The position numbers were made by a program, and so were the translations under genes. The notes beneath the pieces are model-generated. The model searched no databases. It worked only from the letters and a program-made list of their open reading frames with translations, and was not told the DNA's origin. A DNA stretch of 64,000 nt from Phycisphaerae bacterium (GTDB taxonomy: Bacteria; Planctomycetota; Phycisphaerae; UBA1845). The stretch is taken from assembly GCA_963666835.2 (NCBI GenBank), contig CAXXGO010000001.1:1184001-1248000 (forward strand), written 5' to 3'. Shown in pieces: positions 9,215 to 18,000 of this stretch (its first letter is position 1; each line of letters opens with the position of its first letter).

Positions 9215-11851
9215 TTAGGGCGTCGGGCCGTGAAACTCGAGCAGGAACAGGGCGAAATCGATAAGGTCGACGTCGCCGTCGTTGTCCAGGTCGGCGCTTG
9301 CCAATCCGCCGAGCATGATCGACCTGTAAGCCTCAACAACATGACTGCTGGAGCCGCAATCCAGCACCGCCGCGTCCGAGGCCTGCAGCCTGATCGTGTA
9401 GGCGCATGCCGGCAGACCGGCAGTGTCCCAGGTGGCCAGAAGCCCGGAGGCGTTCAGCATCGTTGGTCCCGCGATGACGTGCCAATCGTCATACGGCCCG
9501 CCGGTCACGGCCAGCGTCCAAGTGTCGAGGTTGTTGTCGAAGACTTCACCGTGAATCTCGATACTCGCTCCCGGCGCGAAGACCTCGCAGTTCTCTGGAG
9601 CGGTGAGGCGGGCAACTGGAGCGGTGTTGTCTACGGTGACTGTCAAGCTCGTGGTAGCTGCATTTCCGCACTCGGTTTCTCCGACTACCCGCAGTTCGTA
9701 TTCTCCGTCTGCAAGCCCCATCTCAACCGTACTCCAGGAGGCCAACCTGCCCTCGATTATCGGGGACGTATAGACGGCCGTGTGCGGATCGACCGGCCAC
9801 CAGGTTCCGCCGCCCGCCGGCCGGTAGCTGACGGTGTAGTCGGCGAAGCAGGACTGCGTCCAGGCGGTGCCATGGAAACACACCCAACCACCGTACACCC
9901 TGCCGTTCTCCGGCGTGCTGACTTTCAGGCTGTCGAATTCGGTGGGGTTGTAGACCAGGGTCGAGTCGCTTTCGCTCAGGCCACACTCGTTCTCGGCGAC
10001 GATGCGGACGTCGTAAAAGTCCTGCGTGAGGAGGCTTGTATCCCAGTTGTACAGCACTCCGGATCGTGCCCCGAAAGCCGTAGCTACGTCGACCCAGCTT
10101 GAAGTGCCGCTACGTCGGGTTTCGAGCCGATCGCGCACGTACGTTCCGTCCGGGTCATCGACCGAGCCGGTGATATCAATCGAACCGCACGCGCACTCGA
10201 GGGCGGCGGGCGAGTCGATGCTCACCACCGGCGGTGTGGTGTCGCCGCAAGAAGCCCCCGCGGAGCCCGGGCGGTCAAAGTAGATTGTGCGGAAGTCGGG
10301 ATCGAGGCTGAGGTACATCGCGCCGTGGCTGAAGAGCTCACCGGCCAGCGGCGGAAGATAGCCGATTGCGGTGTCACTACCGGTGTACACGTCGTAGTCG
10401 TTGAAGATGGTCGGGTCGCTCCAAGCGCCGGGAGCGAAGCCGGCGCGTGTGCGGTAATACATCGGATCGAACTCGCCGGCTTCAGCCTGGTAGATGATGG
10501 CGGTACCCGCGCCGTTGCGTGCATCGACATCCGGTTCGAAGTAGCCGAATACACTAGAACCATCCGGAACGGCGAGTGTGCCGGGACTCCACGAGGCGCC
10601 GCAGTCGTAGCTGATCCCGTAGCGGATCCCGGTGCCATTGCTATACGGATACTCAAAGGCACACATAATAGCGTCCTCATAGGCTGAGATAGCCGTGGTT
10701 CGGAAACTGCCGGCTCCGGTCTCGATCGTCCAGTCGGTCCAACCGGTTTCACTGTGCCCCAAGACGTGGATGTTGCCGTCATTGCCCGTGTACGATACGT
10801 AGATAAACTCTGCGCAATTATCACGGTTGTTGTCCCAGGTCATATCCAGCCCGAACTCGGGGTTGCTGCCGGCGGGGGAATCCTCGACGAAAGTAGTGCC
10901 GTCGTCGGCTGCATCGTAAGCCCAGCGCAACACGTCGTTGTCCTGGATGATCGCGTAGTAGATGCGATTGTCGAAGTCGTCGGCGTTGGAAGCTAGCGCC
11001 ACCTCTTCAACCGCATTCGCGCCGGCATCGAAAACCAATTGATATCCGTAGCTGCCGTCGATTCCACCGGTGCTCACCAGGCAGCGCCGAATCCGCGCCT
11101 CGTCAGTAGTGTTGCCGGCAACATAGGCGACGTAGACGTAGTCGTCACTAACGGCGCAATCCACATCGATCATGCCGACTGAGCTCGAAAACGAGTACGA
11201 CTCGGACCACGTTAGGCCGGAGTCGACAGAGATACTAATGCTCCAAGCGCTGTCCCCCGTTGTCGATCCCCAACGGACGGCGGTAAACAGGTTGCCGCTC
11301 TCGGCATCGTAGTCGAGGTTCATCGTCTGGGCCTTATCACGTGTCCCGCCGATACGGCGGTCGAGTCCGCGCGAGCCCGACAACGCCCGCGGGACTTTCC
11401 AAGCAATCCCCAACCCCAGGGGTGCTGCGGCTTCCTCCAGCTTGCGTAACTGCGCGAGCGCAAGCTCGTAGTTTCCGCGGTTCCACAGGGCGGCGATACT
11501 CGTAGCCGCCTCGTGATCGGCGTTGCTTGCCGCGCTGCCCAGCTCCAGCTCGATGTGTGCGTTGGCGCGTTCGTCGAGCGTCAGATTGGCCAGTTGCTCC
11601 CACAGCGCCAGGGGCGTATCGACAGGCTCCCGCTCCGCGGCGGTATCGCGCACGTCAACCAGGTCTGAACCGGGACGGGCTCCCACGTCGATCGGGTACA
11701 ACGCGTCGTCCAATCCCGACGATTCGATCGCTAATCCTGCACTGGCGCCGGACTGATCCTCCTGGGCGACAGCGAGGCCGCCGGCTCCCGCCAGCAGAAG
11801 TAAAACCACGGAAGAGGCACAGACTCTCCCCGTCGACAGGGCGGTTAACAT
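9215..11851 (-). CDS. Large secreted protein with BNR-like motifs, three Ig-like repeats and a C-terminal dockerin/EF-hand-like motif
   Basis: AAGGAG SD, signal peptide, SVDSGLTW and SYDCGASW Asp-box-like motifs, repeated DxTxP...LxxWDT..L..G.Y.IR units, ADLDNDGDVDLIDFALF end. Confidence 0.75.
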   Translation of the reverse strand: MLTALSTGRVCASSVVLLLLAGAGGLAVAQEDQSGASAGLAIESSGLDDALYPIDVGARPGSDLVDVRDTAAEREPVDTPLALWEQLANLTLDERANAHIELELGSAASNADHEAATSIAALWNRGNYELALAQLRKLEEAAAPLGLGIAWKVPRALSGSRGLDRRIGGTRDKAQTMNLDYDAESGNLFTAVRWGSTTGDSAWSISISVDSGLTWSESYSFSSSVGMIDVDCAVSDDYVYVAYVAGNTTDEARIRRCLVSTGGIDGSYGYQLVFDAGANAVEEVALASNADDFDNRIYYAIIQDNDVLRWAYDAADDGTTFVEDSPAGSNPEFGLDMTWDNNRDNCAEFIYVSYTGNDGNIHVLGHSETGWTDWTIETGAGSFRTTAISAYEDAIMCAFEYPYSNGTGIRYGISYDCGASWSPGTLAVPDGSSVFGYFEPDVDARNGAGTAIIYQAEAGEFDPMYYRTRAGFAPGAWSDPTIFNDYDVYTGSDTAIGYLPPLAGELFSHGAMYLSLDPDFRTIYFDRPGSAGASCGDTTPPVVSIDSPAALECACGSIDITGSVDDPDGTYVRDRLETRRSGTSSWVDVATAFGARSGVLYNWDTSLLTQDFYDVRIVAENECGLSESDSTLVYNPTEFDSLKVSTPENGRVYGGWVCFHGTAWTQSCFADYTVSYRPAGGGTWWPVDPHTAVYTSPIIEGRLASWSTVEMGLADGEYELRVVGETECGNAATTSLTVTVDNTAPVARLTAPENCEVFAPGASIEIHGEVFDNNLDTWTLAVTGGPYDDWHVIAGPTMLNASGLLATWDTAGLPACAYTIRLQASDAAVLDCGSSSHVVEAYRSIMLGGLASADLDNDGDVDLIDFALFLLEFHGPTP

Positions 11852-12395: not shown

Positions 12396-13727
12396 TTACT
12401 GCTGGGCTGGGCGCGCAAAGAGAACCTTGCCGGCGACCAACAGCAACAGGGCAAGGACGGCCAGACCCCATTCGGATACCGTAGGGATTGCGTCGCCGCA
12501 TCCCGGGGCGAAGAGGTCATCGTCCGCGCCGGGGCAGACATCCACGCAATTGGCGACGCCGTCACCATCGTCGTCGGCATCCGACACGCCGCATCCGCAG
12601 ATACCGGGGACTTCCTTGTTCGCGTCCTGTGGACACTCATCGCCGCAAACGCCGTCCAAGCCGTCGCCGTCCTGGTCGCGCTCGCATGATAAGCCCACAC
12701 TGCTCGCGGTCCCCCCCAATGCCAGGCACGGACCCTCATCCAGTAGGGCGCAAGTGCCATCTGGAAGACAGCAGGGGGCTCGCAGGTCCAGGGCAATGCC
12801 GATCGGACTGCCGCCTGGCGAAGTGAGGACTACCTCAACGTTCGAGCCGTCAAGATCCGCCCGCTGGATCGTGCCCAGCTCGGAATCGGTCCAGTACATC
12901 TTGCCGGCCGCGGCATCCAATGCAATCTGCCGCGGCTCGGGCGTCCCGGCGGTAACGAGATCTTCCATGTTCGAGCCGTCCAAGTCAGCCCGGCGGATTC
13001 TGCCGGGCTGACTGCCCGCGCTCTCCACCCAATAGACCTTGCCGGCCGCCTGGTCGAGGGCGATCCCCTCGGGATACCAAAGGTCGCCGCTGTAAATGAT
13101 GTCCTCGTAATCCAACCCATCCGGGCTTGTGCGATATAGCGATGCGTGCATGGGAGCCGGCCCGCCGCCGCCCCAATCGGTTCCGTAAAACTTGCCGCTC
13201 GTCGAATCGAAAGCAATGCCACGCGGGTTCAGACCCAAGTATGTGGCTAACGCGACGTCCGATCCATCGAGGTTGGCCGAACCGAGGTGGGGGGCCGAAA
13301 TGAAGAAACACCCGGCAATCCACCCGCCGCTCCAATACAACCTTCCACCATCAGAGTCGACGACTATGCCCCACAATGGACGCCGTGCACACGAAAAAAA
13401 GTCGGGGCAGATCACAGGCGAGAAACCTATGGCCTCCGAGCCGTCCAGATTCGCCCGATAAATGTCATGGACGCCGGAGTCGTCGTACTGTGACTGGTTG
13501 TTCACCCAATACAGCTTGTTCGCCACCATATCGAGAGCGACACTCGTGGGGTTGAACGCTTCGGAGTCTGTGACGACCTGCTCAATGATGCTGCCATTCA
13601 ATCCAGCGCGATAGATGGCGTTGCTGGCGCCGTCGGTCCAATACAACCTCTGCCCGTGGGCAACTGGTGAACAGACGCCAATCACGAACAGACACCCGAC
13701 CATGCAGCAGACGTTTCGCGTATTCAT
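12396..13727 (-). CDS. Secreted YWTD (LDL-receptor class B) beta-propeller protein with IPTL-CTERM sorting signal
   Basis: Start reassigned to ATG 13727 (AGGAGG SD). Repeated LYWTD/KxYW..I.RA.LDGS units, Cys/Asp-rich linker, C-terminal IPTVSEWGLAVLALLLLVAG. Confidence 0.85.
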   Translation of the reverse strand: MNTRNVCCMVGCLFVIGVCSPVAHGQRLYWTDGASNAIYRAGLNGSIIEQVVTDSEAFNPTSVALDMVANKLYWVNNQSQYDDSGVHDIYRANLDGSEAIGFSPVICPDFFSCARRPLWGIVVDSDGGRLYWSGGWIAGCFFISAPHLGSANLDGSDVALATYLGLNPRGIAFDSTSGKFYGTDWGGGGPAPMHASLYRTSPDGLDYEDIIYSGDLWYPEGIALDQAAGKVYWVESAGSQPGRIRRADLDGSNMEDLVTAGTPEPRQIALDAAAGKMYWTDSELGTIQRADLDGSNVEVVLTSPGGSPIGIALDLRAPCCLPDGTCALLDEGPCLALGGTASSVGLSCERDQDGDGLDGVCGDECPQDANKEVPGICGCGVSDADDDGDGVANCVDVCPGADDDLFAPGCGDAIPTVSEWGLAVLALLLLVAGKVLFARPAQQ

Positions 13728-13938
13728 CTGACCCCTCCTGAAGAGAATACCGTCACGATACCGAACCTCGAATGTACAGCAGTACACACATTGTGGCATC
13801 CTGGCATCTGGAAGTCAACGTTTTCCCGTATCGGGCGGACAGATGCCCGTTTCTGAACGGAAACCGCGTTTTTCGGACCATTAGGGCGGATCCGTCGGAC
13901 GGGGCGGTAGAAGACCGCAGCTCCGGCTGAGGACCATT

Positions 13939-14139
13939 GCGACACGTTCCCGTCGGCCCCGCGGACGCCGTTTTGCCGCTTCAACCGCTCAAACAACTCC
14001 ACCGCCGACGGTCGACCGGCGGATAGAGAGCCTGAAACGCCTTGGTTTGGAGTGCCGAAGCCTGGGTAGGATCCGCTCCGCGGACCGTTCGGTGCGACGT
14101 TCTGTCCCGGGGTGGTCCGCACAGCGGACCCTGCCCCAA
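13939..14139. repeat. 201-bp direct repeat, copy A, containing an inverted REP pair
   Basis: Matches 16085-16285 with 2 mismatches by eye. Contains GTAGGATCCGCTCCGCGGACC (14066-14086) and inverted GGTCCGCACAGCGGACCCTGC (14114-14134). Confidence 0.95.
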
Positions 14140-14216: not shown

Positions 14217-14906
14217 CTACAGGATGATGTTCAACTCCAAGAGCTTCTCCCGCGCGGCTTCGAGGCCCGTGGTGTCACAGGCAGTGCGCTCGAGAACACG
14301 CCTATCCTCTTCGCTTAGCGTGATCGGTGCATGTGCGTTGTCCATTCTCCGGACGAACAGACGCTGGATCAACTCGATTTCATCATCAACCAGATCGAGT
14401 TCCTCGGTCCAACACTCGATCGCCTCCTTCGGCTCCAAGATATGGTTCCGAATCAACGCGCCACCATGCGCGATCACCGAATCCCAATCGTCAGCGGATT
14501 CAACTGGTCCATTTGTGCGATCGGCCCAGAAAGCCGTCGTGATGACCGGGATGGGCTTACCGTGGTATTCCTCGATCATGTACTGAAGCGCTTGACCGTA
14601 GGCCAATGACTGCAGGTTTGATGGCATGCCTTCGAAGTAGCGGTCAACATCATAGTGTATGTGTCTACGGAACGGACTGCGCTCGCTGTTGGTCTCAAAG
14701 AAGACCGCAACCAGTGCGGTCTCGGAGAACGCGATCGTCCCGTTCATACTCTGCCCATTCCTGACGCAGTAGTTCGTCCCGTCCATGGTCTGTTCGTGCC
14801 GAAAATCTGGAAATCGCGCAGTGCTAATACTGTGCGTGAGCATGGCAAGCATGGTACCGCGCCACAGCGTCGGATAATCGGGCAGCCTGTCAATGTTCCT
14901 GGCCAT
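14217..14906 (-). CDS. Hypothetical cytoplasmic protein, putative immunity protein
   Basis: 229 aa, acidic, no signal peptide, TAAGGA SD, directly downstream of the HNH toxin. Function is inferred from position only. Confidence 0.6.
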   Translation of the reverse strand: MARNIDRLPDYPTLWRGTMLAMLTHSISTARFPDFRHEQTMDGTNYCVRNGQSMNGTIAFSETALVAVFFETNSERSPFRRHIHYDVDRYFEGMPSNLQSLAYGQALQYMIEEYHGKPIPVITTAFWADRTNGPVESADDWDSVIAHGGALIRNHILEPKEAIECWTEELDLVDDEIELIQRLFVRRMDNAHAPITLSEEDRRVLERTACDTTGLEAAREKLLELNIIL

Positions 14907-14982
14907 GATCTGTCCTTATTCTCGCTTTACCAAGGTCTGTTTGTGCGCTTGGTGGAATCGGAGACGACCTCGTGCAGACTTG

Positions 14983-15981
14983 CTAGTGGTCGGATTTCAC
15001 CGTGTTCTCGGCACGAGATAGTACCTGTGCATTCGTGTAGCTATTCGTTCCGCCCTTGCTCTTCGGTACTACGTGGTCTACTGCCCACTCATTCGGTTCA
15101 TGCGTGCTTCCTGGCCTGCACGGAGTCGGCTGTGTCAGTTCGGCGCCTGACTTATCAGATCTGACGACTCCTCGGTTCCGTGATCTATTGGATGCTATGA
15201 TCTCCGCTCTCTGTGCGCGTGTAAAGTCCTTGCCCGCGGCAACGCCCGGTGGATCGGTTAGGTGACCGTAGAGGCCGCGCCTGGCCCAAAGGGCTGCCGC
15301 ACGAAGGCCGAGGCCAGATCCGATGACTCCGATACCCGCCGTAAAGGTGTCAAACACGCCGAGAGAGAGTTCATGATAATCCTGTGCATCTTGAATCTCC
15401 GCCTGCCCGTAGGCAAAGCCCACCGCGCTTGTTCCCAGACCCAGAGCTGCGAACAAAGCTGCCCCGGCCGGCCCGGATGCGACAATCGGAGCGCCGATGA
15501 GCACCGCTGCGAGACCTGTGAGACCCGTCAGGCCCGCATTCCTTGAGATCAAGATAGCGATTTCTGTGGCCGTGAGATCGTGTTTGTCGCGACTTCCGAT
15601 CAGGTCGATGGCGGTTCGGGTCGCGCCGATCATTGATCCGGAAACATACGCTCCGATGCTGACGGTAGCCAGAATCTCCCCCTTCGACCACAACCCACTC
15701 GGGTCCGTGCCGTTGCCGGGGTTGCTTTGCAGGTATTCGTAGAAGTTCATGCCGTCGGCGAATTGGAGTTCGTAGGCGGCGGAGACGGTGACTACGGGGT
15801 TGCGGGCCTGGTAGGACAGGGCCTGCTGGAGTACGATCCCGACGCCGTTGGGGTCGCGTTGCAGGAACCTGCCGGTTTCCGGATCGAAAACCGCCGACGC
15901 CGGGGTGACACTCCCGCCGAGCAGGATCGCCAGCAGCGTTACGATCGAGAGAAACCGCCGATTACGATGCATGAATCTCAT
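14983..15981 (-). CDS. Signal-peptide-bearing minimal Rhs-core polymorphic toxin with C-terminal HNH nuclease
   Basis: Signal peptide ending TPASA, then FDPETGRFLQRDP...DGMNFYEY..SNP...DPSGL, hydrophobic Gly/Ala helices, then VDHVVPKSKGGTNSYTNAQVLSRAENTVK. Confidence 0.85.
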   Translation of the reverse strand: MRFMHRNRRFLSIVTLLAILLGGSVTPASAVFDPETGRFLQRDPNGVGIVLQQALSYQARNPVVTVSAAYELQFADGMNFYEYLQSNPGNGTDPSGLWSKGEILATVSIGAYVSGSMIGATRTAIDLIGSRDKHDLTATEIAILISRNAGLTGLTGLAAVLIGAPIVASGPAGAALFAALGLGTSAVGFAYGQAEIQDAQDYHELSLGVFDTFTAGIGVIGSGLGLRAAALWARRGLYGHLTDPPGVAAGKDFTRAQRAEIIASNRSRNRGVVRSDKSGAELTQPTPCRPGSTHEPNEWAVDHVVPKSKGGTNSYTNAQVLSRAENTVKSDH

Positions 15982-17609
15982 TGTCTTGCTCCTTGTCGGG
16001 GGAATGACGGATGCGGTACGGTCGGGACGCTGTATGCGTTATACGGCGACCATTGGGCGTTCGAGCCGATGGGAGGCTCCGGCCGCGACACGTTCCCGTC
16101 GGGCCCGCGGACGCCGTTTTGCCGCTTCATCCGCTCAAACAACTCCACCGCCGACGGTCGACCGGCGGATAGAGAGCCTGAAACGCCTTGGTTTGGAGTG
16201 CCGAAGCCTGGGTAGGATCCGCTCCGCGGACCGTTCGGTGCGACGTTCTGTCCCGGGGTGGTCCGCACAGCGGACCCTGCCCCAATTGATTGCAGATGCC
16301 ACTGGGCGTTTGGCGCAACCGGGAAGTTGGACACCTGCGGGGGCGAACTCTGTTGCGTCTCGTCCCGCTTCTTCGGATATAGAATCGCCCGTGCGTAGCG
16401 TGCCAACGCCTCGTTACGCCGGTTCGTTTCCTCGAGCCAGGCGTTCATTGATGTGGGTGACCGGTTGTCGACGTCAAGGAAGTCGAACGCACTCGATGAT
16501 TGCGGAACGGGATACCCCGGTACCGCGAACGCACCGGTGGAAGTCGGCGGCCCGAATCCGGATTGCCGGCTACTGGCCGCATACGCCGTCGGCACGACCG
16601 GCATACCGGGCACCATCAGCCGCGGATCGGTCCAGCGCCGCCGCTCGTGCCTCTGATACGCATCCTCTACTTCCTGCGCGAGTCTCTCGGCCCGGCGCTG
16701 GGCCTCCAGGTTGGCAATCACTTGCGAGGTGTGGCGATATTGAAAGTTCGCCGCGTAGTTTCTGGGTGACAACTTTATGGCAGTTTCGTAGCAGTGCAGC
16801 GCATCGTGAAGCCGGCCGGAGAAGAAGAGGTTGTCGCCCCGCGTGGTCATGAAGACGGCCAGCTCCCCGCGCGGCGAGAGGGACTTCAGGAAGTTACTGC
16901 TGTCTCGCTCGGCGGCGTTCCACTCCCGCGGCCAGGTTCTGTAGGATTCGTCCGAGTAGCTGCCGTACCCGCGGCTTGTCCCTTCGATGTTGAATCGCTC
17001 GCCGGTCTCGGGGTCGTCCCAACGCAGAAAGCTGTGCTCGGCCGTGGTGACCAGCTTGAGCGGATACCCCAGTCGCCGCCCGATGGCGATATACAGCACC
17101 GGCATCGACGTACACGTCCCGCCGGTTCCTTCGAGCAAGCCGTTGATGAACAGGTCTTGAGACCGGGTGAAGTCGAAGCGATTGGGGTCGTCCTCCGGTG
17201 GGATCTGGTCCGGGTTGTAGCGGACGCCAAGGTCCTGCTGGAGGGTCATGGCCATCATGAGCATGGCGAACTCGCCCCAGGAGTGGTTGTACTCCTCCGG
17301 ATTCTGCTCGAAACGGTAGCGGTGCCGGTTCGTCTCGTAGGCGACGTATGCCGCCCAGGCGTCGAGTTTGGCGAGCAGGGCCTTGCGGTCGATGCGCTCG
17401 GAGCCGGGGAGTCCCTCGGTGCAGATGAGGTTCATCGTGGCGATGTCGACCTTGGCCAGGTCACGCTCGGGCAGGTTGATGAGTTCCTCGAGCGTCAGCG
17501 ACTCCTCGGGTATCTCCGCATCCGCCCGGGTCGTGCCAGGCTGGATCGCGGCCGCGAGGGCCAACACAAGGACGCCCGCTCGGTACGTTCTGACACACAT
17601 TATCCCCAT
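15978..17609 (-). CDS. Secreted transglutaminase-like (SirB1-type) protein with a TPR and a Pro/Ser-rich tail
   Basis: GAGGTG SD, signal peptide, DLFINGLL..GGTCTSMPVLYIAIGRRLGYPL...EHSFLRW...NIE (Cys-His-Glu), TPR-like ALHCYETAIKLSP; stop overlaps the toxin start (ATGA). Confidence 0.75.
   Translation of the reverse strand: MGIMCVRTYRAGVLVLALAAAIQPGTTRADAEIPEESLTLEELINLPERDLAKVDIATMNLICTEGLPGSERIDRKALLAKLDAWAAYVAYETNRHRYRFEQNPEEYNHSWGEFAMLMMAMTLQQDLGVRYNPDQIPPEDDPNRFDFTRSQDLFINGLLEGTGGTCTSMPVLYIAIGRRLGYPLKLVTTAEHSFLRWDDPETGERFNIEGTSRGYGSYSDESYRTWPREWNAAERDSSNFLKSLSPRGELAVFMTTRGDNLFFSGRLHDALHCYETAIKLSPRNYAANFQYRHTSQVIANLEAQRRAERLAQEVEDAYQRHERRRWTDPRLMVPGMPVVPTAYAASSRQSGFGPPTSTGAFAVPGYPVPQSSSAFDFLDVDNRSPTSMNAWLEETNRRNEALARYARAILYPKKRDETQQSSPPQVSNFPVAPNAQWHLQSIGAGSAVRTTPGQNVAPNGPRSGSYPGFGTPNQGVSGSLSAGRPSAVELFERMKRQNGVRGPDGNVSRPEPPIGSNAQWSPYNAYSVPTVPHPSFPRQGARQ
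16085..16285. repeat. 201-bp direct repeat, copy B, in frame inside the transglutaminase-like CDS
   Basis: Near-identical to 13939-14139; offset 2146 bp. Confidence 0.95.
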
Positions 17610-17792: not shown

Positions 17793-18000
17793 GCCGGGTT
17801 CAGCCTTTTGTCACGTGGGGGATTCGCTATCGTGCTTTGATCGTTGCGATCACGATTAAGAAGGTGTCCGCCGCGCGGACTATCTAGTGCGACGTCCAGT
17901 CTCTGGTCCGCACAGCAGACCCTACCACGTAAGCCGGGGCCAGCCTTTTGTCGCGCGGGGGATTCCCTATCATGCCTTCATGGCCGCGATCACGATTCAG
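17793..18000 (+). repeat. Diverged duplication (period 140 bp) of the ABC-F promoter and start region, with a REP between the copies
   Basis: 17801-17860 versus 17941-18000 match at 50/60 positions by eye; REP TGGTCCGCACAGCAGACCCTAC at 17904-17925. Confidence 0.8.

Follow-up and report, generated by a model that had tools for sequence, protein, structure and literature searches.

How could an Rhs toxin be made and delivered without its shell, and what would stand in for that shell? The question is raised by three adjacent minus-strand genes in a 64,000-nucleotide stretch of the genome of a Phycisphaerae bacterium (contig CAXXGO010000001.1, positions 1,184,001 to 1,248,000; the whole stretch is called the window here, and its source genome G000). 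The genes encode a transglutaminase-like partner enzyme (P0002), a short or mini-Rhs protein (P0001) and a likely immunity protein (P0003). A sequence-only reading of the window had placed these three open reading frames, the ATGA overlap of the P0002 stop with the P0001 start (15981-15978) and the DPSGL motif of P0001 (residues 93-97, positions 15705-15691), all of which were borne out on the sequence, and had proposed that the partner replaces the Rhs cocoon. The plug of Rhs proteins has been known as one component of a large shell; in this system it stands alone, strongly constrained and tied to one enzyme family, and the system is widespread in Planctomycetota and Verrucomicrobiota, two little-studied phyla. 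As judged from sequence, the genes would constitute an operon for a polymorphic toxin whose shell-less Rhs plug bears a swappable, presumably toxic tip, apparently a variant of polymorphic toxin that has not been described before.

Linkage of the partner enzyme and the mini-Rhs gene

Enzyme similarity was the sole criterion for collecting loci: 301 genomes of the class supplied 30 and a species collection 76 (by title Planctomycetota 52, Verrucomicrobiota 15, other labels 9), and 24 more family matches and 16 weak matches were added. Two complete chromosomes of Pirellulaceae are among the carriers of the pair (L051 and L060). Removal of 9 identical duplicates, of the 16 weak matches and of one locus from G283, an unpublished genome, left a final set of 120 loci including that of the window, 113 of them with at least 400 nucleotides of downstream sequence. 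An Rhs core was found directly downstream of the enzyme gene at 106 of these 113 loci, the conserved linkage that the sequence-only reading had set as a test, and it began between 86 nucleotides before and 539 nucleotides after the enzyme stop (median 98), too close to leave room for a shell. As a control, no Rhs core was detected near the long-TPR (tetratricopeptide repeat) paralogues of the enzyme (0/15), and one partial match was likewise without a core. The profiles used for core detection were built from 33 of the same loci; the TIGR03696 model also matches all 73 aligned mini-Rhs cores. In the reverse search of the 301 genomes, a signal-plus-core match was obtained in 29, of which 24 also carry the enzyme family, itself present in 42 genomes (E under 1e-20; this tally includes G283). 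A truncated long Rhs, which the earlier reading had named as a possible origin of P0001, was rejected, as the gene has this short form in close relatives too, where no long Rhs takes its place.

The paralogues of the control (L127-L141) form a separate SirB1-like subfamily that contains the Cys and His, resembles the partner weakly and has no Rhs link, and two families, f17 (23/23) and f22 (10/10), consist throughout of members with an enzyme-search match, mostly of this weak SirB1-like kind. Standalone signal-plus-core genes were seen in two genomes with no detectable enzyme, G192 (L183, between phosphoglycerate dehydrogenase and acyltransferase genes) and G003 (L184). No conserved fourth gene was found near the loci; type II secretion system genes or a phage capsid gene occur near three to five loci each. 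A scan for promoters and terminators yielded nothing informative. At L035, L044, L070, L102 and L145 a related opposite-strand open reading frame lies nearby, and that of L070 matches a phage capsid family, which suggests carriage on prophage-like elements.

Architecture of the mini-Rhs protein

P0001 matched the Rhs_assc_core model (TIGR03696) with an E value of 1.9e-7 and 31.5 bits against a cut-off of 32.5, and its excised core scored 37 bits. A profile of the 73 cores matched the final ~41 residues of the Rhs and Tc shell structures held by the PDB (E 1e-14). The core begins at residue 31, and of the conserved part of an Rhs shell it retains no more than the final ~45 residues; no YD or RHS-repeat, PAAR or VgrG model of Pfam or NCBIfam matched the protein, so that the architecture described from the letters alone, a leader running straight into the last part of the core, was upheld by the scans. 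Within the plug, Asp43 (73/73), Asp93 (72/73) and Arg42 (65/73) are conserved. In Tse5, mutation of the aspartates of the DPxG-x19-DPxG motif blocks self-cleavage and both are catalytic, according to the accessible text of PMC10684867, and Arg42-Asp43 and Asp93 of P0001 correspond to these aspartates. A 27-residue insert, which the sequence-only reading had not reported, separates the two core motifs in P0001; among mini-Rhs proteins the distance between the aspartates is longer than in Rhs (DPxG-x18/19-DPxG) and variable, from ~21 to 121 residues. P0001 carries the DPxG-L autocleavage motif, and cleavage would be predicted there. The AlphaFold model of the excised plug was of low confidence (pLDDT 62, pTM 0.30).

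Signal peptides were judged by a basic N-region, hydropathy (KD19) and a small-x-Ala site, and all are predicted. The signal peptide that the earlier reading had assigned to P0001 gains from the comparison with its exported relatives: in 61 of 65 the small-x-Ala site is kept in register with the core (Ala or Gly at Tyr-2, a small residue at Tyr-4), and the predicted mature N-terminus thus lies one residue ahead of a conserved Tyr, which is also where 15 of the 18 scorable signal-less cores begin (M-Y in 9, M-S/G-Y in 6). Three exported cores are longer by 3 residues, and three signal-less cores by 21-28. More reduced plugs occur at L011, L017, L113, L124 and L144, where the leader passes almost directly into R-D, without the YxPxxGRF strand. 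The leader of P0001 includes an RR pair; since this pair is missing from some close homologues, export by Tat is unlikely.

Behind the plug, the hydrophobic region of P0001 is common to P0004-P0006, whose tip is a NucA/NucB nuclease instead. The tip matched Pfam HNH below the cut-off (E 8e-4, 19.9 bits against 21.4), with H303, N317 and N326 present, and the same HNH domain terminates Rhs, PAAR and other toxins. The G+C content at third codon positions is 0.78 in the partner, 0.81 in leader and core and 0.61 in the tip.

The partner enzyme

P0002, present in a single copy in G000, fits the Transglut_core2 family (PF13369) by its Pfam match above the cut-off (E 2.5e-6, 27.5 bits against 23.5), its papain-like fold and its Cys-His-acid triad. 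TPR matches remained below the cut-off (TPR_2, E 7.8e-5), with one TPR at residues ~256-289. The predicted signal comprises residues 1-29, and the KD19 peaks of the leaders are 1.61 here and 1.97 in P0001. The enzyme family numbers 1,285 representatives (E 1e-30 or lower); among the best 150 the triad is kept almost throughout (C 149/150, H 150/150, E or D 149/150), and Cys and His are invariant in the 73 aligned rows. The AlphaFold model of the partner, whose underlying alignment (A2) takes in one row from G283, was confident (pLDDT 91.9). Its best structural match was menin (Z 13.8, root-mean-square deviation 3.7, 207 residues aligned), followed at lower Z by TglA (Z 8.6) and other transglutaminase-fold proteins, and the fold neighbours include transglutaminases, acyltransferases and pseudomurein endoisopeptidases; Foldseek returned no match at E 0.001, the best again being menin (4e-3). 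Menin is a scaffold with a peptide pocket and has Ser in place of the Cys, and the function of PF13369 is given as unknown, both as stated in the accessible part of PMC10318531. Most exported partners have an N-terminal membrane anchor, and the share of Gln in the partner tail is modest (median 7%). Odd enzyme architectures were observed in P0023, P0024, P0032, P0094 and P0116, including two tandem enzyme domains, one protein with an Rhs YD fragment fused ahead of the enzyme and one frame with enzyme, internal signal and core.

Joint export signals and natural fusions

By hydropathy rules, both proteins of a pair carry an export signal at 71 loci and neither does at 22, the two being discordant at 7, so that 93 of 100 scored pairs agree (6 pairs were unscored). 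On a quick tree the signal label requires 7 changes, with about three to four joint switches. The window pair and its closest relative (L031, which has a GTGA overlap at the same junction) fall inside a mostly signal-less group (SH-aLRT 84-85), and because of this nesting the two signals of the window pair were probably regained together. Sec export, which the sequence-only reading had made part of the system, holds as a signal-like leader in the window and not as a defining trait, given that a signal-less version of both genes exists (L013, L014, L026, L043, L047, L067, L079, L119-L126 and others). The third genes of signal-less pairs have a hydrophobic N-terminus in 18 of 25 cases by a crude rule; signal-less toxins may therefore still act outside the cytoplasm.

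Moreover, in 7 of the best 150 representatives the enzyme, TPR, linker, core and tip form a single chain, which places the enzyme where the shell would be. These fusions have no signal and no RHS repeat array and keep the triad; their clusters contain between one and five members, several are seen on two or more contigs, and they make up one related group. A further candidate, G762, was rejected since it has a separate enzyme gene plus three cassettes, and no fusion was present among the 19 matches listed for 401 genomes. The mirror-tree correlation between partner and plug (Spearman 0.34, shuffled maximum 0.22) was not counted as evidence, because adjacent genes give such a correlation anyway.

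Exchange of tips and the likely immunity gene

The 91 tips compared fell into 79 clusters, and close homologues combine near-identical leaders with differing tips; homologues with the leader of the window protein end in NucA/NucB or Hint-linked tips. A Pfam match was found for 14 of 126 tips, several below the cut-off, and for 112 there was none; those named include HNH, M35 peptidase, two phospholipases A2, Tlde1, SLT and Ntox44. Cassette arrays reach five cassettes, and downstream copies of the partner 3' end occur at 9 of the 65 loci with long flanks. The window holds such a copy: behind P0003, the second of two 201-nucleotide repeats, which the sequence-only reading had not reported, duplicates part of the 3' region of the enzyme gene and is likely the remnant of a cassette anchor. 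An assembly artefact was rejected for this repeat, as run X1 supports both copies (a collapsed node at about twice the depth) and a 512-nucleotide version exists in runs X4/X5, one sample of another study. The close strain in those runs matches the window to position 15688, just past DPSGL, and then continues with 2,247 unlike letters followed by the 512-nucleotide copy; compared at the sequence level, it swaps the cassette at DPSGL. A palindrome resembling repetitive extragenic palindromes (GGTCCGC-N3-GCGGAYC) is present in 44 copies in G000 where base composition predicts ~0.5, and the four exact copies of the window lie inside the two 201-nucleotide repeats (14070-14130 and 16216-16276), two of them within the partner coding sequence.

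P0003 contains no hydrophobic segment and matched no family of Pfam or NCBIfam, the Atlas yielding only hypothetical clusters. Among its 23 relatives, 13 occur at a locus that also encodes this HNH tip, and 12 of them come immediately behind it; these 13 represent about six lineages with unrelated toxin N-termini, and the other ten are on short contigs or are orphans. The distribution of relatives makes P0003 the likely cognate immunity gene, tracking the HNH tip.

Proposed role of the partner in the absence of a shell

The reading that we favour, and hold to be somewhat probable, is that the partner serves as carrier and maturation enzyme, taking over from the shell in binding the plug, and processing the precursor so that the toxin is released after Leu97. 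In the scheme that we infer for binding, cleavages, export route, toxicity and immunity, both proteins would be translated in a coupled manner and sent to the same compartment, here by Sec, and signal cleavage would leave a plug that begins one residue before the conserved aromatic. The cleft between enzyme and TPR may then bind the plug, substituting for the absent shell, and the Cys-His-Glu site of the partner would process the precursor and, with Asp43 and Asp93 of the plug, free the fragment after Leu97. The hydrophobic helices may bring the HNH DNase into the cytoplasm of a neighbouring cell while P0003 guards the producer, and recombination at the plug and at the copies of the partner 3' end would exchange tip-immunity cassettes. 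The coupling to one compartment, together with fusions that keep the triad in cis, indicates action on the toxin, and as the role of the enzyme we prefer processing or activation to covalent anchoring. A bolder form, which we consider possible although we would not bet on it, is that the papain-fold enzyme has replaced the whole Rhs cocoon and the 45-residue plug has become a universal cargo tag, with the enzyme covalently processing or tethering any tip in the periplasm or, in signal-less pairs, in the cytoplasm. If so, PF13369 would gain its first bacterial function, and nature would have supplied a tag and a matching enzyme with which proteins could be ligated or released.

Several observations weigh against the favoured reading. 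Seven of the 113 loci have no downstream core, five of these having one upstream, and 5 of the 29 signal-plus-core genomes are without a detectable enzyme; three of the five are fragmented, but two are 95% complete and carry the gene alone among unrelated genes, so that either the partner is not obligate or standalone genes are relics. The plug retains its own catalytic aspartates, and a second protease is therefore not obviously needed. The joint switches have modest tree support (SH-aLRT 84-85), and related loci are not independent of one another. Only 7 of the 14 Pfam-matched tips are toxin-type enzymes, so that for most of the 126 tips we infer the name toxin, and no known immunity family was recognized among 73 third genes. 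The favoured reading also does not account for how signal-less pairs would leave the cell, and a conserved fourth gene was not found at the loci.

As the chief alternative, the partner could be a ligase: a donor, either the Pro/Gln-rich tail of the partner or some component of the envelope, would be bound as an acyl-enzyme and passed on to the free N-terminal amine of the mini-Rhs protein as a sortase-like surface tether, the plug then cleaving itself to release the tip. Such a role is consistent with the predicted mature N-terminus fixed relative to Tyr in exported and signal-less proteins alike, the intact triad, the membrane anchor of most exported partners and fold neighbours among transglutaminases and acyltransferases. 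However, the fusions keep the triad though the N-terminus of their plug is not free, some cores are extended (the three with +3 and the three with +21-28 residues) or start directly at R-D, the fixed register may only mark the first beta-strand, and Gln is not abundant in the tail; we therefore regard ligation as unlikely. Still less likely, in our estimate, is a helper effector that acts as amidase, protease or cross-linker on the target or own envelope and lets the toxin out or in, with a plug that folds and cleaves itself alone. Triad retention even in fusions, the intact plug aspartates, the existence of standalone mini-Rhs genes and the lower-Z neighbours TglA and pseudomurein endoisopeptidases would all suit a helper, whereas the pairing of signal-less enzymes with signal-less toxins is a better fit to action on the toxin, one enzyme goes with tips predicted for different compartments, and the low-confidence plug model (pTM 0.30) may be a weak sign that the plug does not fold alone.

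The remaining alternatives turn on the classical Rhs genes of G000, which has 18 other, classical Rhs cores and orphan cassettes in four clusters. The mini-Rhs protein might be loaded in trans into a long Rhs shell encoded elsewhere, or be recombined onto one, with the enzyme as adaptor: 11 of the 18 cores have a ~27-residue insert similar to that of P0001, two of them in frames of more than 3,000 residues, mini- and long-Rhs cassettes share tip regions (E 3.6e-12), and some arrays mix both kinds. Yet the window core has no DNA similarity to the long-Rhs cores, every mini-Rhs gene has its own start and signal, and an aspartate spacing of ~21 to 121 residues fits poorly to a fixed shell, which leaves this explanation very improbable. 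That the short gene is an ordinary silent orphan cassette or a decayed Rhs with an incidental neighbour can hardly be credited at all, even though orphans made of core fragments are standard at Rhs loci according to the accessible text of bioRxiv 10.1101/2024.02.26.582050 and are present in G000; all orphans of this genome keep at least 160 shell residues and have no signal, and the mini-Rhs gene has a conserved leader, a coupled start, linkage at 106/113 loci, fusions, and export signals that are gained and lost jointly with those of the partner. The linkage and the fusions largely refute this alternative.

Comparison with known systems

The mini-Rhs proteins resemble the Rhs/YD-shell toxins Tse5, RhsA, Rhs1, TcC/YenC2 and WapA in their C-terminal plug with two conserved aspartates and a DPxG motif, as well as in the variable tip, adjacent immunity gene and downstream cassettes. 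In contrast to these toxins, they have no YD repeats, N-terminal plug or PAAR/VgrG module and retain ~45 conserved residues, the plug is directly preceded by a signal peptide or Met, the insert between the aspartates varies, and an enzyme gene is linked or fused. Unlike an Rhs orphan cassette, P0001 has its own start, leader and coupling, and its locus contains no long Rhs.

Maf loci of Neisseria comprise an immunity gene and cassette arrays, and MafB is not known to have an Rhs plug. As far as the accessible portions of PMC7738311 and PMC4287609 describe it, the MafA-MafB-MafI system is similar in that an accessory gene precedes a small signal-peptide toxin with a variable tip. MafA, however, is an outer-membrane protein, forming an oligomer that is required for secretion (PMC7738311, in the same portion), whereas the partner here is an enzyme of papain/transglutaminase fold, and no Maf domain matched the window proteins in Pfam or NCBIfam at E up to 1.

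A transglutaminase fold in a Sec-exported RHS polymorphic toxin was previously reported by Zhang et al. (2012; PMC3482391), in whose accessible text an inactive transglutaminase domain is placed near the start of the toxin, before the RHS-repeat array. That domain is fused, has lost the triad and is followed by repeats, whereas the partner is usually encoded by a separate gene, keeps the triad and comes without repeats. The accessible part of a table in the same paper gives 'Proteases: Transglutaminase' for Ntox10 (Bacteroidetes, Verrucomicrobia) and Ntox13, and the Ntox10 entry may be a passing earlier notice of the system. With Transglut_core2/SirB1-like proteins (PF13369) and menin the partner shares the Pfam match, the triad and the combination of transglutaminase-like and TPR folds; it differs from the long-TPR SirB1-like subfamily of the same class, which has no Rhs core nearby (0/15), and from menin, which on the accessible text of PMC10318531 has Ser for Cys and acts as a scaffold. 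In a literature search that left most subscription papers outside its reach, no description of the pair was found, and the accessible parts of PMC3239186 and PMC8195603 do not describe it. The small size of the proteins makes testable whether Rhs self-cleavage and delivery need a shell and what role the uncharacterised PF13369 enzymes play, and the unannotated tips and third genes constitute a pool of candidate antibacterial effectors and immunity proteins.

Features of the window

Table 1. Positions of the system in the window, with the Rhs clusters found elsewhere in G000
Feature	Position	Strand	Remarks
Partner gene P0002, 543 aa	15978..17609	-	Open reading frame; signal, transglutaminase-like domain, one TPR, Pro/Gln-rich tail
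Predicted catalytic triad codons of P0002	16983..17114	-	Cys166 17112-17114, His192 17034-17036, Glu209 16983-16985
Mini-Rhs toxin gene P0001, 332 aa	14983..15981	-	Open reading frame; start inside the stop of the partner (ATGA)
Predicted Sec signal peptide of P0001, aa 1-30, end A-S-A	15892..15981	-	Hydropathy and conserved small-x-Ala pattern
Shell-less Rhs C-terminal plug of P0001, aa 31-97	15691..15891	-	TIGR03696; Arg42-Asp43, Asp93 (DPSGL), 27-aa insert
Gly/Ala-rich hydrophobic region of P0001, aa 98-232	15286..15690	-	Predicted membrane-crossing module; KD19 peak 1.85
Putative HNH nuclease tip of P0001, aa 233-332	14986..15285	-	DH302-303, N317, N326; Pfam HNH below cut-off
Likely cognate immunity gene P0003, 229 aa	14217..14906	-	Relatives adjoin the same HNH tip elsewhere
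Direct repeat copy 1, 201 nt	16085..16285		Within the partner gene, aa ~442-509
Direct repeat copy 2, 201 nt, 99% identical	13939..14139		Behind the immunity gene; no toxin after it
Classical Rhs clusters of G000	C5:42-54 kb, C5:127-136 kb, C6:366-392 kb, C6:1059-1078 kb		

Downstream of the system, the window encodes an exported LDL-receptor-type beta-propeller with IPTL-CTERM (12396-13799) and an exported Ig-domain protein (9215-11851), which have no conserved place beside the system at other loci. Upstream, between the partner gene and a divergent ABC-F gene, lies a 68-nucleotide direct repeat (17793-17860 and 17933-18000, 82%).

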